NCBI RefSeq assembly: GCF_003018255.1
Contig: NZ_CP027440.1
Length of the DNA: 64,000 bases
Origin: Escherichia coli
GTDB lineage: Bacteria > Pseudomonadota > Gammaproteobacteria > Enterobacterales > Enterobacteriaceae
Strand: one strand, 5' to 3'
The translations under genes and the position numbers were made by a program. A model generated the notes under the pieces. The model was not told the origin of the DNA, made no database searches, and saw only the letters and a program-made list of their open reading frames with translations. This document shows positions 58,492 through 64,000 of this stretch, piece by piece. Numbering within the stretch: the stretch's first letter is position 1; each line of letters opens with the position of its first letter.

Positions 58492-58499
58492 CTTCTCTG

Positions 58500-58536
58500 T
58501 CTATGAGAGCCGTTAAAACGACTCTCATAGACTTTA
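58500..58536. terminator. Convergent terminator hairpin between qseC and ygiZ
   Basis: Perfect 10-bp stem tctatgagag / ctctcataga followed by tttact. Confidence 0.6.
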
Positions 58537-58869
58537 CTAATAGCAAAATATAAACCGTCCCCAAAAAAGCCACCAACCACAACCCAGACAAATAACGAGC
58601 GAGAATACATATAGCCAAAACTCGAACATTTCCCGCATAAAGAGTTTTCTTAAGATAAGAATAATAAGTGGTGTCAGAAGAAAAAATGCTGCAATCATTG
58701 CTTGCAATATACGATCTTCGCCTGAAACAGAAGGTATACTGCAAATATTGTCTCCCGACTCAAGCATCCAGTCATACTTATTGAAAGCAAAAAAAGAATC
58801 TATTAACCAATAAGTAAGCATTATATATAATAGTGCTTCAAATATTGATAGTAGTTGTTTTTTTAACAT
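58537..58869 (-). CDS. ygiZ: Small inner-membrane protein (three predicted TM helices), 110 aa; candidate immunity protein
   Basis: Length and position match K-12 ygiZ; start lies 6 bp after the stop of the upstream SLT-like gene; AT-rich. Confidence 0.85.
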   Translation of the reverse strand: MLKKQLLSIFEALLYIMLTYWLIDSFFAFNKYDWMLESGDNICSIPSVSGEDRILQAMIAAFFLLTPLIILILRKLFMREMFEFWLYVFSLVICLGCGWWLFWGRFIFCY

Positions 58870-58875
58870 ATCTGA

Positions 58876-59586
58876 TTACTCATTAATCAATTTTTTGATA
58901 TGTTCTCTAATCTCTAACAACCTCATACCATAAGAGATGAATTTATAATCATCTGTATCACGCGCAGGCAAATTATTAATTAAACAAATAAAAAAGCCCA
59001 AATCTCGTTCAACACCACGATTATATCTAATACCAGCCATAATATACTGCTCATTCGTCATATACAGTGTTGCCGAAGAGGGATAATCAAAAAGGACAAG
59101 ATCTCTTAAATAAGTAGCAGCAATTTGAAAGGTAAAATCATCCTCCATTAGGCATGTCGCTAACTCTAACTGATTTCTGGTAGTTAATTCTGAAGGGTCT
59201 AGACCTAGAGTAATCGCTGCGGTTCGTATTTGTATACCCATTGAGCCAAATGATGTTTTATTTTCAGGCATATCTAACAATCCCATCATTCTTTTTGTTT
59301 CATATATCTGAAACTTATAATTTTCAGGCATACCTCCTGACTCAATCCAGGCCACGCCGCCCAGTAACTCTGGACGAATTCCAGCGGCGTATGCATGTTT
59401 AATTATTTTGTCTCTATTATATTGTACATATGCATCTTTATAAGCATTTAAATAATATACTCCTGAACGGCGACGCGAATCATTTTTTCCTAACTTCCAG
59501 AGTAAAACGTCCATTTCATCCCATTTACGGAACTTCGCTTGTGGAATTGTACAATATCTATTTTTTATAGTGAGATCGCTTTTCAT
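58876..59586 (-). CDS. Lysozyme-like / SLT-domain protein, about 236 aa; putative Hcp-associated type VI effector
   Basis: Motifs in order: catalytic-type WIESGG, then GSMGIQI, then YNRG; ATG at 59586 lies 2 nt after the hcp stop with an AAGGA ribosome-binding site inside the hcp 3' end; track start (TTG, 59613) rejected. Confidence 0.55.
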   Translation of the reverse strand: MKSDLTIKNRYCTIPQAKFRKWDEMDVLLWKLGKNDSRRRSGVYYLNAYKDAYVQYNRDKIIKHAYAAGIRPELLGGVAWIESGGMPENYKFQIYETKRMMGLLDMPENKTSFGSMGIQIRTAAITLGLDPSELTTRNQLELATCLMEDDFTFQIAATYLRDLVLFDYPSSATLYMTNEQYIMAGIRYNRGVERDLGFFICLINNLPARDTDDYKFISYGMRLLEIREHIKKLINE

Positions 59587-59588
59587 AT

Positions 59589-60068
59589 TTAAAAAATCCT
59601 TTCTTCCCAACAACTATATGATTCCGTACTCGCGATATGGTGCTTCCATGTTATATTTTTATAATTAAGAACAATGACCTCTTCCGGCTGATTACCCGCA
59701 TGTGTAATTGAGTGTGGATAACATGTCAGAATATTCGATAAATGTGCTCCTTGCAATTCAATTGTGTAAAACCTTTCAATACAACCGCCAGAATTAACTC
59801 TATAAAAATTAAATACAGCTGATAACTCTTCATTTTCAGAAAGAGCGGCATTTAATAAAGGGGAGGATTTATCTATTGGCTTGTAAAATTTTATGGGGTG
59901 ATGCACTACATTATACTCTCGACTTAAAGAATGGTCGAACTGTAAAACAAAAATTTCATCCACATGATTTATTTGATATTTATTACCAATAGATGCATAC
60001 GAACCACAACCCTCAGAGATCAAACCTTGTATTTTCCCTTTAATTGATAAGTATATGATATTTGACAT
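59589..60068 (-). CDS. hcp: Type VI secretion tube protein Hcp (Hcp1 family), 159 aa, orphan copy
   Basis: Conserved Hcp blocks (H-P-F-K-ID-SSP-L, NITW, C-terminal WEER); no other type VI genes in the window. Confidence 0.85.
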   Translation of the reverse strand: MSNIIYLSIKGKIQGLISEGCGSYASIGNKYQINHVDEIFVLQFDHSLSREYNVVHHPIKFYKPIDKSSPLLNAALSENEELSAVFNFYRVNSGGCIERFYTIELQGAHLSNILTCYPHSITHAGNQPEEVIVLNYKNITWKHHIASTESYSCWEERIF

Positions 60069-60216
60069 ATATATTCTCCATAATCATTTTTTCCGAAAAA
60101 CTCCTGTATCATTTGCATAATACATCTCTCCTGTGGGAGCTTATGGGAAGTTGATTTAAGTATTGTCATTTTCAGAAAATATTTATCCCGCATCGGTGAA
60201 TCAGAGAAAGATCAGA

Positions 60217-60263
60217 CTTTTGCTAAATTCGCAAAAGACTTTGCACATTTTGCTAATTTCACC
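60217..60263 (+). promoter_or_regulatory. mdaB upstream element: 7-bp inverted repeat plus marbox-like sequence
   Basis: Palindrome cttttgc-N7-gcaaaag, a direct repeat of ttttgctaa(a)ttc, and tttGCACattttgctaattt resembling the MarA/SoxS/Rob box; a -10-like tactat lies about 20 bp downstream. Confidence 0.35.
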
Positions 60264-61288: not shown

Positions 61289-62176
61289 TTAGCCATTCTT
61301 TCTTCCCGTTTTCAGTCCTCGATGGAAATCGTTAATTCGCTTAATGGTTTTAACCGCACGCTGCGGCACTGCGGAAGCTACCGACCAGACAATCATTTCC
61401 AGACACAACAATACCGTACCATGTAGCGGCGTTTTCCCTTTTTCATCCCCGCGCGGAACATGAATCACGATACTGGCGTCTTTGCTAAAACGTGAATCCA
61501 GCGCGTTTGTCAGCAAAATAACAGGGATCCCTAGCCGCCTCGCCTCACGAAGCGTTGTCAGCCCTTCCCGGTGCGCTGATTTTTGCGCCATCATGATCAG
61601 AACATCGCCACGTTGAAGCGCGATCAGTTGCTCGGCAAGGCCAATACCCGTACGGTTTAGTGCCGTGGCAGGCAAACCTATGCGGTTGAATAGTCGTGCG
61701 GTATAGTCCGCCAGAATACCCGAAGCGCCAATGCCAAAAATTGCGACTTGCCGTGCCTGCACCAACAACGCTACAGCTTGCGCAAGCGCGTGGCGGTTTT
61801 CAGGCTCTGACAGGACATTACAGGTATACAAATGCCCTTCAAGAACAAAGTCGATTGCGGTGTTAACATCGCTCGTCAAGTTACTCACCGTCGTAGACAT
61901 CTTTTCGCTGGAACTAAGGGCTGGACCAAGCCACTGTTCCAGAGTGCGTTTCAGATCACGCAGCCCGGCAAACCCCAGGGCCTGTATAGCCCTGATAACT
62001 GTGGCATCGGAAGTGTTCAACGTGGCCGCAATTTCCATCGCCGTTTGCTCGAGTACCACTTCACGATGCTCATTAATGTAGCTGGCGACAACTCTTAACC
62101 CAGGCGTTAACTGACTCGCGCGAGTGCGAAAACGCTCACCAAAAATATCAACCCGCACTTTATCTTTCTGGATCAT
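61289..62176 (-). CDS. RpiR/MurR-family regulator (HTH plus SIS domain), 295 aa
   Basis: N-terminal HTH region and C-terminal SIS-like region; start overlaps stop of the upstream binding-protein gene (ATGA). Confidence 0.75.
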   Translation of the reverse strand: MIQKDKVRVDIFGERFRTRASQLTPGLRVVASYINEHREVVLEQTAMEIAATLNTSDATVIRAIQALGFAGLRDLKRTLEQWLGPALSSSEKMSTTVSNLTSDVNTAIDFVLEGHLYTCNVLSEPENRHALAQAVALLVQARQVAIFGIGASGILADYTARLFNRIGLPATALNRTGIGLAEQLIALQRGDVLIMMAQKSAHREGLTTLREARRLGIPVILLTNALDSRFSKDASIVIHVPRGDEKGKTPLHGTVLLCLEMIVWSVASAVPQRAVKTIKRINDFHRGLKTGRKNG

Positions 62177-63120
62177 TTAGCCTCCGGTAGAGGTCGCCCT
62201 GCAATTTGTGATTGTATCTGCGCAGCCATCAGCCCCAGAGATGCAAAGGAGTTAGAAATTGCCTCTTCACGAGAAATCAGCACATAACGCCCGGAACGAC
62301 AGGCAGTCAGAAACTGACACCATCCCGGCATGACTTTTTCCATTGCTGCCAGCTCATCCTGAGGTTTACCACCGGTGTCACCGCGCCAGGTTGCAAAAAC
62401 AAAATCGGCATCCAGTTCAGGTAAACGCTCCGCGCTCACATCCATTCGCCCACCTTCAGGAATGCTCTCAATCAGCGGCGGAAAACGAAAACCCGCATCG
62501 CGTAATACCCGCCCCAGCGAATGATAGCTATGCATCACATTAATTTTTCCCTGGTTTGCCTGAATCACCGATACCGTTATTTTTTGGCTGTCCAGCGTCG
62601 CCTTCAGCGCATTGATTTGTGCCTGATAGCGGCGTTCAAGTATCGCCAGCTGCGACTGCGTTCCTGTAAGTCCTGCCAGCTTGCGATAGATTTCTGGCGC
62701 ACCCCCTTTGAGATGATCAATGCTCACCGTGGGCGCAATTTTTTCAAGTTGTTCAATGGGCGTATTACGGGTCGGTTCTGTGATGATCAGGTCAGGCTTT
62801 GCCGCCACAATCGCTTCAATATCAATATCAGCGGTACCAATAAAGGCGATCGATGAATTATCAAAGTCGACACCTGTCAATAACGCGCCAGATCGAATGA
62901 AATGGCTACCGTCAGGCCGAGTTCGCCCGTGGCTGGCGACAGGAGGTACACCGAGCTCAATCAGAGGAATAGTGATATCAAGATCGTGTAAAGAGACAAT
63001 TCTCTTTGGATGAGCAGGAACAGTGACTTTGCGCCCTAAATCATCAGTAAATACCTGAACAGGTTCTGTTGCACGGGAAAAAAATGACAACAGTATCAGC
63101 AGAGAAAAAAATAAACGCAT
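62173..63120 (-). CDS. ABC-transporter periplasmic substrate-binding protein (siderophore/cobalamin/heme class), about 315 aa
   Basis: Signal peptide (MRLFFSLLILLSFFSRA) then FecB/BtuF-like sequence; track ORF extends 21 codons further upstream. Confidence 0.7.
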   Translation of the reverse strand: MRLFFSLLILLSFFSRATEPVQVFTDDLGRKVTVPAHPKRIVSLHDLDITIPLIELGVPPVASHGRTRPDGSHFIRSGALLTGVDFDNSSIAFIGTADIDIEAIVAAKPDLIITEPTRNTPIEQLEKIAPTVSIDHLKGGAPEIYRKLAGLTGTQSQLAILERRYQAQINALKATLDSQKITVSVIQANQGKINVMHSYHSLGRVLRDAGFRFPPLIESIPEGGRMDVSAERLPELDADFVFATWRGDTGGKPQDELAAMEKVMPGWCQFLTACRSGRYVLISREEAISNSFASLGLMAAQIQSQIAGRPLPEAK

Positions 63121-63130
63121 ATAACTCCCG

Positions 63131-64000
63131 TTAAAAACTGTTCCTGCGCTGCCAGAGCAGTAGCAAAAAAAATGGTCCACCAATCAGTGAGATAATGATT
63201 CCGGCAGGCAGTTGCAAAGGCAAAAAAGCCAAACGACCAATGCTATCCGCCAGAATAACTAACAACGCCCCCGATACCGCGCTCCCCAGCAGTAATGTCG
63301 TCTGCCCGCCACGTAGAATAAAACGTGATATATGGGGTGCTATCAATCCGACAAAACCGATGTTACCAACACACGAAACGCAGACGGCTGTCAGGATTAT
63401 TGGTGCGGCGACACGTAACAACGCCAGACGAGAACTATTCACCCCTAACCCGGTTGCAACCTGATGACCAAGCAGAGCGATATCCGCCGTCCTGGCGGTG
63501 AACAGCAATAAAAGAGCGGCTGGCAACATCCAACAGGCTGAAATACCGACTAACATCCAGTTAGCTGCATGCAGGCTTCCCGATAACCACATCAATGCAG
63601 TTTGTACATCTCGAACATCTGCAGTGGTCATAAATACACCGATACCGGCGGCGAAAAACCAGGAAACACCAATACCAATCAGAACAAATCGCGGGCGGGA
63701 AATATCGCGCGCACAAAAAATCACGATTAAAGCCACCAACAAGCCACCAGCAAGACCAGCCACTGGACGCCAGAACATTCCCAGCATTGGAAACTGGAAA
63801 ATCAGCCACAGCACCGCCACGCTACATCCTTCTTTGACGCCGATTAAACCAGGATCGGCAAGGCCGTTACGCGCAATGGATTGCATCGCGGCCCCCGCCA
63901 TACCTAACATGGCTCCGCATAGCAATGCCATGATGACTCTCGGCAAGCGAATATCCTGCACAATATAACGTGCGTCTGTGCTTACGTTTTCTGGAGCAAA
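63131..64000 (-). CDS. FecCD-family ABC permease, N-terminus beyond the window edge
   Basis: Polytopic membrane ORF; coding frame continues to position 64000. Confidence 0.7.
   Translation of the reverse strand, partial: FAPENVSTDARYIVQDIRLPRVIMALLCGAMLGMAGAAMQSIARNGLADPGLIGVKEGCSVAVLWLIFQFPMLGMFWRPVAGLAGGLLVALIVIFCARDISRPRFVLIGIGVSWFFAAGIGVFMTTADVRDVQTALMWLSGSLHAANWMLVGISACWMLPAALLLLFTARTADIALLGHQVATGLGVNSSRLALLRVAAPIILTAVCVSCVGNIGFVGLIAPHISRFILRGGQTTLLLGSAVSGALLVILADSIGRLAFLPLQLPAGIIISLIGGPFFLLLLWQRRNSF

Follow-up and report, generated by a model that had tools for sequence, protein, structure and literature searches.

A probable mobile type VI effector cassette of Escherichia coli that combines an orphan Hcp, a lysozyme-fold protein and the DUF2645 protein YgiZ

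Introduction

What purpose does an hcp gene serve in a stretch of genome where no type VI machine is seen? The question is raised by a locus of Escherichia coli (contig NZ_CP027440.1) where hcp (tssD) is followed at its 3' end by a gene for a 236-aa protein, here named X, and by ygiZ, and where no type VI structural genes were seen in the examined 56-63 kb region of the window, the 64,000-nucleotide stretch of DNA that was analysed. In an initial annotation of this DNA the hcp-X pair was read as an Hcp-dependent cargo effector that likely targets peptidoglycan. In the light of the results described below, the three genes probably make up a compact type VI effector cassette that is mobile and consists of Hcp, the lysozyme-fold toxin X and YgiZ as a predicted inner-membrane immunity protein.

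Results

The features of the locus are listed in Table 1. The open reading frames and their spacing matched the initial annotation exactly: the stop codon of hcp occupied positions 59589-59591 and the ATG of X was located at 59586, leaving a gap of 2 nt, and the X reading frame ended at 58876. The start of ygiZ was found 6 nt past the X stop codon. The same hcp and X coding sequences were present in the RefSeq annotation of the identical strain KC-Dl-1. A TTG start of X at 59613 (245 aa) found no support, as orthologues in other genera aligned from the ATG and M1 was invariant. The AT-richness ascribed to the pair was also evident, with a GC content of 0.30-0.38 across the hcp-X block, ygiZ included, compared to ∼0.5-0.55 in the flanks. 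The island boundaries came from aligning the window with the K-12 type and with O157. In the initial annotation ygiZ had been taken for a flank of the insertion. It was instead assigned to the island as its third gene, because the empty site of O157:H7 also lacked ygiZ and because hcp-X and ygiZ move together in other genera, too.

Table 1. Coordinates of the five features of the locus in the window.
Feature	Position	Strand	Description
hcp (tssD)	59589..60068	-	159 aa; orphan type VI tube protein; presumed toxin carrier or chaperone
X	58876..59586	-	236 aa, 27.5 kDa; lysozyme/SLT-fold, no signal peptide; predicted peptidoglycan glycosidase toxin; candidate catalytic residue Glu82
ygiZ	58537..58869	-	110 aa; DUF2645; three predicted membrane helices; predicted cognate immunity protein
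AT-rich island, ∼1.7 kb	58492..60205		missing in the O157:H7 qseC-mdaB spacer; from three-way alignment, GC content and annotated loci
10-bp inverted repeat, TCTATGAGAG - 12 nt - CTCTCATAGA	58500..58531		between the convergent qseC and ygiZ; read from sequence and alignment

The inverted repeat was missing from O157 in the alignment and thus belongs to the island. It is a possible bidirectional terminator, which was missed by the terminator scan because its loop exceeds 8 nt. On the whole, the promoter and terminator scan of the island was uninformative: it returned 3 promoter-like sites, where 8.8 would arise by chance alone.

The product of the first gene was confirmed as an Hcp by full-length family HMM matches, to TIGR03344 (E 2e-58, 196.9 bits with a cut-off of 58.9, residues 1-157 matched) and to PF05638 (E 1.9e-19). 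The closest Hcps of solved structure were Hcp3 of P. aeruginosa (3he1) and Hcp of V. cholerae, both at E ∼1e-20.

All three ordered motifs that had been noticed in X were present, namely WIESGG at 80-85, GSMGIQI at 114-120 and YNRG at 188-191. In 137 X relatives with identities down to 24%, E82, G85, S112 and G191 were invariant and G114, Q119, R187, Y188 and N189 nearly so, while position 83 was occupied by S, V, T or A in the alignment. Comparison of the X family profile with the SLT domains of E. coli by hhalign gave a probability of 86% (P 5e-6; reversed-sequence control P 0.38). In this alignment Glu82-Ser83 of X, an E-S motif at a helix end, was placed on Glu64-Ser65 of EmtA, of which Glu64 is catalytic, and RYNRG (187-191) was aligned with the A-Y-N-x-G block. 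Of the equivalences to SLT enzymes that had been claimed, the E-S and A-Y-N-x-G blocks were therefore recovered; the G-L-M-Q block could not be confidently aligned. GSMGIQ was not placed on GLMQ, and a loop of ∼17-20 residues is inserted there in X. Its T-S-F-G-S-x-x-x-Q stretch (111-119) lies 37 residues past Glu82, whereas the SLT G-L-M-Q lies ∼15 residues past the Glu.

Structure prediction with AF2 returned a confident model (pLDDT 89.9; all five models at least 85) with a lysozyme-like, alpha-helical fold, and every one of the best structural matches was a peptidoglycan enzyme. Other sequence-based searches were negative: X gave no match to Pfam or NCBIfam, and none to Pfam SLT (PF01464) even at E <= 10, and phmmer and hmmsearch with its profiles A1 and A3 over the full set of PDB sequences returned noise and no match at E <= 1, Tse3 and the solved lytic transglycosylases included. 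Sequence and predicted fold do not separate a lytic transglycosylase from a muramidase chemistry for X.

An exhaustive HMM search yielded ∼374 cluster representatives of the X family. With these representatives and a dN/dS of ∼0.13-0.26 between E. coli alleles, on few substitutions, X is, on sequence grounds, a genuine gene and not a chance ORF. In many members the X domain was the C-terminal part of a longer protein of 300-935 aa. Among 58 distant relatives, the N-terminal delivery partners were the eCIS cargo domain PF13699 (12/58), PAAR (3-4) and RHS (1). Two distant relatives, one Rhs-type and one YD-shell-type, were located on short contigs, which were uninformative about immunity genes. 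Peptidoglycan-binding partners in the same set were OmpA (5) and PG_binding_1 (2-4), and PF01464 was matched by one relative at 4.6e-5 and by seven at E <= 0.1. Rare in-frame Hcp::X fusions were found as well. The same putative toxin domain occurs with different delivery modules, standing beside hcp or joined to PAAR, RHS or the eCIS domain PF13699.

YgiZ matched PF10840 (E 8e-11) and contained three hydrophobic segments as judged from hydropathy and charge distribution. Its conserved features were an NKYDWMxE loop and two Cys. A DUF2645 gene was located directly downstream of the X homologue in every locus with recorded context, at a spacing of 0-6 nt or with a 4-nt overlap in E. coli, a Citrobacter-like contig, Pectobacterium, Chania, Serratia, Rahnella and the contig with a PAAR-X fusion. 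In the latter, the DUF2645 gene followed with zero gap, and another N-terminal variant of X had a weak DUF2645 match next downstream. The pairing of X with DUF2645 survives a change of delivery module. Prior knowledge on ygiZ consisted of its being a BglJ-RcsB target and of a sabinene-tolerance screen. In a literature search of incomplete coverage, neither a mention of DUF2645 nor a link of ygiZ to type VI secretion was found, and an earlier description elsewhere is possible.

Beyond E. coli, the arrangement Hcp (159 aa)-X-DUF2645 was found with unrelated flanks in Pectobacterium, next to IS and integrase genes in Chania, on conjugative plasmids of Serratia and on a megaplasmid of Rahnella. 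A third Serratia plasmid carried the X-DUF2645 pair with hcp nearby on the opposite strand, and the Citrobacter-like contig held a decayed copy of the cassette at the same qseC-mdaB site. Identity between genera was 56-62% for Hcp and X and 35-40% for YgiZ, so that the putative immunity protein diverges fastest. Judged from these neighbourhoods, with flanking genes that differ each time, hcp-X-ygiZ is a three-gene unit that moves horizontally. Across genera, X always came with one and the same type of Hcp, an association which suggests that the two work together. The kept synteny and the fusions to PAAR, Rhs and eCIS domains strengthen in silico the reading of X as an effector, whose delivery would require Hcp and a type VI system.

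The distribution of the cassette was surveyed in 5,426 complete E. coli genomes. The hcp gene was present in 1,263 of them and the full hcp-X-ygiZ stretch in ∼1,261 (∼23%), while 4,598 genomes (∼85%) carried ygiZ. All of the genomes with hcp-X also had ygiZ, and ∼3,300 genomes had ygiZ alone; O157:H7 had neither hcp-X nor ygiZ. The predicted immunity gene was thus also found alone, and the toxin gene was not found without it. Values of dN/dS were 0.12-0.30 for hcp, X and ygiZ, the ygiZ of K-12 included. A clean deletion of hcp-X as the origin of the K-12 state was rejected, as the 146 nt that only the K-12 type has upstream of ygiZ showed no similarity to hcp-X. We propose that most E. coli, K-12 included, lost or never had hcp-X, and that purifying selection preserves their ygiZ as an orphan immunity gene.

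Discussion

X would be an Hcp-linked peptidoglycan-glycosidase toxin, a role in which we infer both its toxicity and its substrate, and YgiZ most likely protects against it. In the proposed mechanism, X would ride in or on the Hcp ring, and a type VI apparatus whose genes lie at another genomic location would shoot it into the periplasm of a Gram-negative neighbour. X would act there on peptidoglycan and cut its glycan strands by muramidase or lytic transglycosylase chemistry, with Glu82 as the candidate catalytic acid. The N-terminus of YgiZ is predicted to be cytoplasmic, in which case its acidic loop NKYDWMLE...C and C-terminal Cys would face the periplasm and could protect kin cells by neutralising X on its arrival.

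The immunity proteins known for type VI effectors that attack peptidoglycan are lipoproteins or soluble proteins of the periplasm. Polytopic membrane immunity is atypical in this setting and more usual against membrane-targeting toxins, and we know of no membrane-embedded immunity protein described against a cell-wall glycosidase. A bolder form of our reading, which we offer tentatively and consider rather unlikely as a whole, is that YgiZ provides the first case of polytopic inner-membrane immunity to a type VI toxin of the lysozyme fold and is a near species-wide shield, and that X does not simply digest the mature sacculus: it would attack lipid II or nascent glycan strands on the periplasmic side of the inner membrane, or be captured there.

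A related alternative keeps the lysozyme fold and moves the relevant target of X away from mature peptidoglycan altogether, either to the periplasmic surface of the inner membrane, with lipid II or nascent glycan chains as substrate, or to another polysaccharide. Such a target would explain a membrane-embedded immunity protein. Against it stand the best structural matches of X, the fusion of its distant relatives to PG_binding_1 and OmpA, and the agreement of its E-S and Y-N-x-G blocks with family-1 lytic transglycosylases, and we judge it improbable.

Similarly improbable in our view is that the cassette is an inert remnant in E. coli, with an unused orphan Hcp and an X that is never delivered, so that ygiZ alone would matter, either by protecting against attackers of other species or through an envelope function that has nothing to do with X. 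The machinery of one carrier genome that was examined (ST131) fits this alternative. Its type VI cluster at metV encodes an Hcp with ∼31% identity to the orphan Hcp over 107 aa, and at this low identity the orphan Hcp may not be compatible with the metV machine. The tssM gene of this genome is split by ISEc12, and therefore the cassette cannot be fired there. A type VI island was looked for at the aspV site of ST131 and none was found. An SLT-domain protein encoded after vgrG in the metV cluster was considered as a paralogue of X and rejected (hhalign P 0.34). Decay variants likewise favour a remnant, namely the Citrobacter-like Hcp::X fusion that lacks the Hcp N-terminus and in-frame deletion alleles, and so does the ygiZ of K-12, which has its own BglJ-RcsB-activated promoter (PMC3950696). 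On the other hand, undamaged copies of hcp and X are present in ST131, Nissle 1917, MS 115-1 and KC-Dl-1. The constant association of one Hcp type with X and a dN/dS of ∼0.12-0.26 for hcp and X, at small substitution counts, further argue against an inert state.

It is highly improbable that X and YgiZ form an endolysin-holin lysis module, or that X is a self-acting wall remodeller that helps a secretion machine across the sacculus of its producer, and not a toxin with its immunity protein. A signal-less lysozyme-fold enzyme next to a 110-aa, three-helix protein does resemble an endolysin with a class I holin, and X matches PHROG family 11932, a family without assigned function. There are also precedents for wall enzymes that serve a machine of the producer: type III and type IV secretion and flagella have dedicated lytic transglycosylases, and a type VI system is helped by MltE. 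Several observations speak against a lysis module: the enzyme gene comes first and the membrane protein second, with hcp upstream; tblastn of X against 50,697 phage genomes gave no match; and none of the flanking loci is a prophage lysis region. A holin is further disfavoured by the end of YgiZ, directly after the third helix and without a charged tail, by the harmless T7-driven overexpression of ygiZ in BL21(DE3) (PMC7181518), and by the ∼3,300 genomes with ygiZ alone, in which a lone holin would not stay under purifying selection. If X were a self-acting enzyme, its joining to PAAR, Rhs and eCIS cargo domains would make no sense.

As a predicted type VI effector, X can be compared with several known systems. 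The muramidase pair Tse3/Tsi3 (Tge1/Tgi1) of P. aeruginosa shares the fold alone, with 14% identity over the aligned residues. Tse3 is a protein of ∼400 aa, whereas X has 236 aa and is linked to an orphan hcp. The partners differ as well: Tsi3 is soluble and periplasmic, and the partner of X is a predicted three-helix inner-membrane DUF2645 protein. From the family-1 lytic transglycosylases (PF01464, GH23; MltE/EmtA, Slt70, MltC), X differs by the missing PF01464 match, an extra N-terminal region of ∼55 residues, the loop inserted behind the catalytic helix and additional helices at its C-terminus. It also lacks a signal peptide or lipobox and would be a mobile cargo domain, not a housekeeping enzyme.

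In gene order the locus resembles the Hcp-linked and Hcp-ET systems of Enterobacteriaceae (Ma et al. 2017, cited in PMC6730261) and the hcp islands of Pantoea (PMC9796082). In these systems, an orphan or island hcp is directly followed by a toxin and then an immunity gene, and orphan immunity genes are kept in related strains. The rare Hcp::X fusions are a further point of resemblance; in the window, in contrast, X is a separate gene. The Hcp-ET toxins of the review are DNases, a phospholipase and pyocin/colicin DNase, and the X domain and DUF2645 are not among them (PMC6730261). Killing through a lytic-transglycosylase-type domain that acts on prey peptidoglycan is described for the A. baumannii effectors Tse4 (bioRxiv 10.1101/2021.03.04.433973) and Tae17 (PMC11796386). 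Both are large bifunctional effectors, and the delivery of Tae17 is reportedly VgrG-dependent, which sets them apart from the small, single-domain X beside hcp. Two further candidates were discarded: Hcp2B of avian pathogenic E. coli belongs to a different locus, hcp2B-vgrG2-DUF2169-xmtU/V (PMC5874247), and the lysozyme-like effector of Pantoea is a VgrG glucosaminidase and not X (PMC9796082).

If the cassette functions as proposed, X represents an unannotated toxin family, whose domain would be common to type VI systems (Hcp-adjacent, PAAR, Rhs) and extracellular contractile injection systems, and ygiZ, an uncharacterised gene of K-12, would gain a first, testable function. YgiZ would also widen the known range of immunity mechanisms. 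Lineages of medical importance have the cassette in intact form, among them ST131, the probiotic strain Nissle 1917 and the asymptomatic-bacteriuria strain 83972, and the predicted immunity gene is much commoner than the toxin gene. If true, ygiZ, carried by ∼85% of E. coli, would be a shield against a weapon of ∼23% of strains, ST131 and Nissle 1917 included, and this pattern of toxin and immunity, with O157:H7 lacking both, could affect strain competition in the gut and colonisation resistance.

Structure of the hcp-X-ygiZ cassette

The part of the window that carries the cassette corresponds to the E. coli qseBC-ygiZ-mdaB-ygiN region. The Hcp gene and the closely following second gene, X, described in the initial annotation were recovered as open reading frames with 2 nt between the hcp stop codon and the ATG of X, and the Hcp product was matched over its full length by TIGR03344 (E 2e-58) and PF05638 (E 2e-19). 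Strain KC-Dl-1 was 100% identical over the hcp-X stretch and the identical pair of coding sequences is annotated there by RefSeq, hcp as 'Hcp family type VI secretion system effector' and X as 'hypothetical protein'. The AT-richness ascribed to the pair was confirmed, with a GC content of 0.30-0.38 at ~58500-60250 versus ~0.5-0.55 in the flanks, and the AT-rich block covers ygiZ as well as hcp and X. The orphan Hcp was nearer to P. aeruginosa Hcp3 and V. cholerae Hcp (E ~1e-20) than to enteroaggregative E. coli Hcp1 (E 1e-5).

Coordinates of the cassette genes and of features in compared sequences (L-numbers denote compared loci)
Feature	Location	Strand	Product
hcp	window 59589-60068	minus	159 aa
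X	window 58876-59586 (ATG at 59586)	minus	236 aa
Segment deleted in X allele P0005	window 59269-59319		
Siderophore-transporter block	window 61289-63183 and beyond		
Type VI cluster at metV, ST131 strain	L030:8844-14762 (NZ_CP103710.1 938843-944761)		
aspV site, ST131 genome	L029:841-32619		
Hcp::X fusion, Citrobacter-like contig	L016:4779-5711		
Pesticin-domain and LprI-like genes, Chania multitudinisentens	L011:10287-11314		204 aa, 138 aa
qseC-mdaB spacer, O157:H7 MB41-1	L003:3995-4105		
Stretch upstream of ygiZ, K-12-type genome	L002:1891-2036		
Plasmid copy of X (H71)	NZ_MG591698.1 60214-60921		

X is a predicted lysozyme-like toxin domain

X had no match in Pfam or NCBIfam, and its sole family match was PHROG family 11932, a family of unassigned function. 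Close homologues (54-74% identity) were 'hypothetical proteins' of Pectobacterium, Erwinia, Serratia, Chania and Citrobacter. When 1.84 billion representative proteins were searched exhaustively with an HMM, 374 relatives were obtained at E <= 1e-3, and in many of these the X domain was the C-terminal part of a 300-935-aa protein. Scanning 58 long relatives against Pfam for N-terminal partners revealed the eCIS cargo domain PF13699 (12 proteins), OmpA (5), PAAR (3-4), PG_binding_1 (2-4) and RHS repeats (1), together with weak SLT matches in 7 (best E 4.6e-5). Judged by these partners, X is predicted to be a polymorphic toxin domain serving contractile injection systems, and the recurrence of peptidoglycan-binding partners points to the cell wall as its substrate.

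The suspected resemblance to SLT and lysozyme folds was borne out by structural comparison, in which Tse3, the type VI muramidase of P. aeruginosa, scored highest (12.0, 169 residues aligned), followed by Slt (11.5), MltE (11.3), MltC (10.6), MltF (10.5), Slt70 (10.3), g-type lysozyme (9.5) and Tge2 (7.1); MltE and Tse3 were also ranked at the top by Foldseek. When the X family profile was aligned by hhalign to the SLT domains of EmtA, MltC, Slt70 and MltD from a K-12-type genome, a probability of 86% was obtained (P 5e-6; reversed-sequence control, P 0.38). Three motifs of X, WIESGG (residues 80-85), GSMGIQI (114-120) and YNRG (188-191), had been equated with the Glu-Ser, G-L-M-Q and A-Y-N-x-G blocks of these enzymes. 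The outer two equivalences held: Glu82-Ser83 fell on the catalytic Glu64-Ser65 of EmtA within near-identical segments (WIESGGMP in X, AIESGGNP in EmtA), and RYNRG fell on the A-Y-N-x-G block. The G-L-M-Q block was not matched up, because a loop is inserted in X at ~residues 89-110. Among 137 relatives, the most distant at 24% identity, E82, G85, S112 and G191 were invariant and K50, T111, G114, Q119, R187, Y188 and N189 nearly so. In its predicted action X resembles Tse3 and the other Tge effectors as well as SLT-type lytic transglycosylases; by sequence it could not be assigned to Tge1 or PF01464. No hydrophobic segment, and hence no Sec signal, was found in X, so that the periplasm would be reachable only by injection.

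One E. coli allele of X (P0005, 86 member sequences) lacks 17 aa, in frame, between two MPEN repeats (GGMPEN[YKFQIYETKRMIGLLDMPEN]KTSFG); this deletion takes out most of the loop inserted after the catalytic helix and leaves a Glu-to-Gln spacing nearer to that of canonical SLT domains. A protein from a 3-kb ENA contig (P0004) contains residues 45-236 of X at 99% identity, preceded by an unrelated N-terminus of ~120 aa with a signal-peptide-like beginning; it represents either a Sec-exported variant or an assembly chimera.

YgiZ as the candidate immunity protein

YgiZ, encoded directly downstream of X, matched PF10840 (DUF2645; E 8e-11) and contains three hydrophobic segments. Its charges (N-terminal MLKKQ, an acidic loop at residues 28-53, and KLFMREM between helices 2 and 3) fit a topology in which the N-terminus would lie inside and the acidic loop and C-terminus would face the periplasm. 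Within this loop lies the family-conserved motif N-K-Y-D-W-M-x-E with invariant Y32, W34 and E37, and most DUF2645 members keep two cysteines, Cys43 of the loop and the C-terminal Cys109, compatible with a periplasmic disulfide. To our knowledge, wall-targeting type VI effectors are countered by immunity proteins that are either lipoproteins or soluble in the periplasm, whereas YgiZ is a predicted polytopic membrane protein, which keeps a membrane-proximal target of X in play as a live alternative to the cell wall.

In the searchable literature ygiZ occurs in only two contexts: its promoter is activated by BglJ-RcsB (PMC3950696), and its T7-driven overexpression in BL21(DE3) improves sabinene tolerance and cell shape (PMC7181518), which argues against a holin-like function. 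A connection of ygiZ or DUF2645 with type VI secretion is made in none of the papers there. In E. coli, dN/dS was 0.12-0.30 on small counts for hcp, X and ygiZ, and all three genes are under purifying selection, including the orphan ygiZ of K-12. Across genera, YgiZ diverged fastest (35-40% identity versus 56-62% for Hcp and X), as is typical of immunity proteins.

The cassette outside E. coli

The arrangement Hcp(159 aa)-X-DUF2645, with gene gaps of 0-6 nt or 4-nt overlaps, recurred in unrelated contexts: between pagP and eamA in Pectobacterium, beside IS and integrase genes in Chania, beside traI, traX and repA on Serratia conjugative plasmids, and on a Rahnella megaplasmid (X 40% identical to that of the window). 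A third Serratia plasmid carried X-DUF2645 with hcp on the opposite strand, and a Citrobacter-like metagenome contig had the cassette at the same qseC-mdaB site. A DUF2645 gene also lay immediately after a PAAR-X fusion, and a weak DUF2645 match followed another N-terminal variant of X; the X-DUF2645 pairing therefore outlasts a swap of the delivery module.

Two in-frame Hcp::X fusions were found, which ties X physically to Hcp. One, in the Citrobacter-like contig, joins the C-terminus of Hcp to X at residue 23, with the first ~60 Hcp residues outside the ORF; the other, a metagenome sequence (P0002), joins Hcp residues 1-100 to X at residue 12. Both may represent Hcp-ET-like variants or intermediates of decay. 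In Chania multitudinisentens, ~3 kb from the cassette, a Pesticin-domain gene is followed by an LprI-like gene, and the two look like a further pairing of a muramidase toxin with a lysozyme inhibitor within this mobile region.

Proposed mechanism and type VI machinery

We propose that hcp-X-ygiZ is one operon-like cassette of carrier, toxin and immunity protein. X would be carried in or on Hcp hexamers and launched by a type VI apparatus whose genes lie elsewhere; as a hydrolase or lytic transglycosylase, it would cut glycan strands in the prey periplasm via Glu82, while kin cells would be protected by YgiZ. Hcp-linked cargo islands and Hcp-ET toxins are similar in arrangement, but an X domain with DUF2645 immunity was not described for them in the literature searched.

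One carrier genome, an ST131 strain, was checked for a type VI machine. A full cluster was present at metV, but its tssM (ImcF-related) is split by the IS21-family element ISEc12, and this machine is therefore probably inactive; its Hcp shared only ~31% identity with the orphan Hcp. Further products of the cluster include three VgrG proteins, an M23 peptidase, a Tle1-type phospholipase accompanied by a DUF4123 adaptor and, encoded after a vgrG, a 200-aa SLT-domain protein that proved unrelated to X. No type VI island was found at the aspV site of this genome, near which a second, lateral flagellar cluster (flg, fli, flhA, flhB) lies between rayT and a transcriptional regulator.

States of the qseC-mdaB spacer in E. 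coli

Three spacer states were found in E. coli: hcp-X-ygiZ, ygiZ alone (K-12) and empty (O157:H7). The pair had been described as inserted between ygiZ and mdaB; the cassette does lie in the qseC-mdaB spacer, but ygiZ belongs to the island rather than to its flank, because the empty state, in which the sequence picks up right after the qseC stop codon, lacks ygiZ too. O157:H7 genomes lack both hcp-X and ygiZ, and in MB41-1 qseC and mdaB are only ~110 nt apart. In the K-12-type genome, ~146 nt directly upstream of ygiZ, up to the shared mdaB-upstream sequence, showed no similarity to the hcp-X cassette, which rules out a clean hcp-X deletion; the BglJ-RcsB-activated promoter presumably lies within this stretch.

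Among 5,426 complete E. coli genomes, the full hcp-X-ygiZ stretch was present in 1,261 (23%), any hcp match in 1,263 and ygiZ in 4,598 (85%); ~3,300 had ygiZ without hcp-X and ~830 had neither. X was essentially never seen without ygiZ. The roughly 15% of complete genomes lacking ygiZ would be predicted to be sensitive to X. A copy of X (97% identity) is annotated on a 354-kb E. coli plasmid, and the cassette is thus not confined to the chromosome in this species. Between ygiN and the K-12 position of parE, a block comprising a MurR/RpiR regulator and an iron-siderophore transporter of the ABC type (substrate-binding protein, FecCD permeases) is a second presence/absence polymorphism near the cassette; the window has this block, as do O157:H7, ST131 and Nissle 1917, whereas the K-12-type and MS 115-1 genomes lack it.

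These results are of practical interest in three respects: they assign a predicted function to ygiZ, a K-12 gene of unknown function; ST131, Nissle 1917 and strain 83972 carry an intact cassette; and a clear immunity polymorphism across E. coli is predicted.
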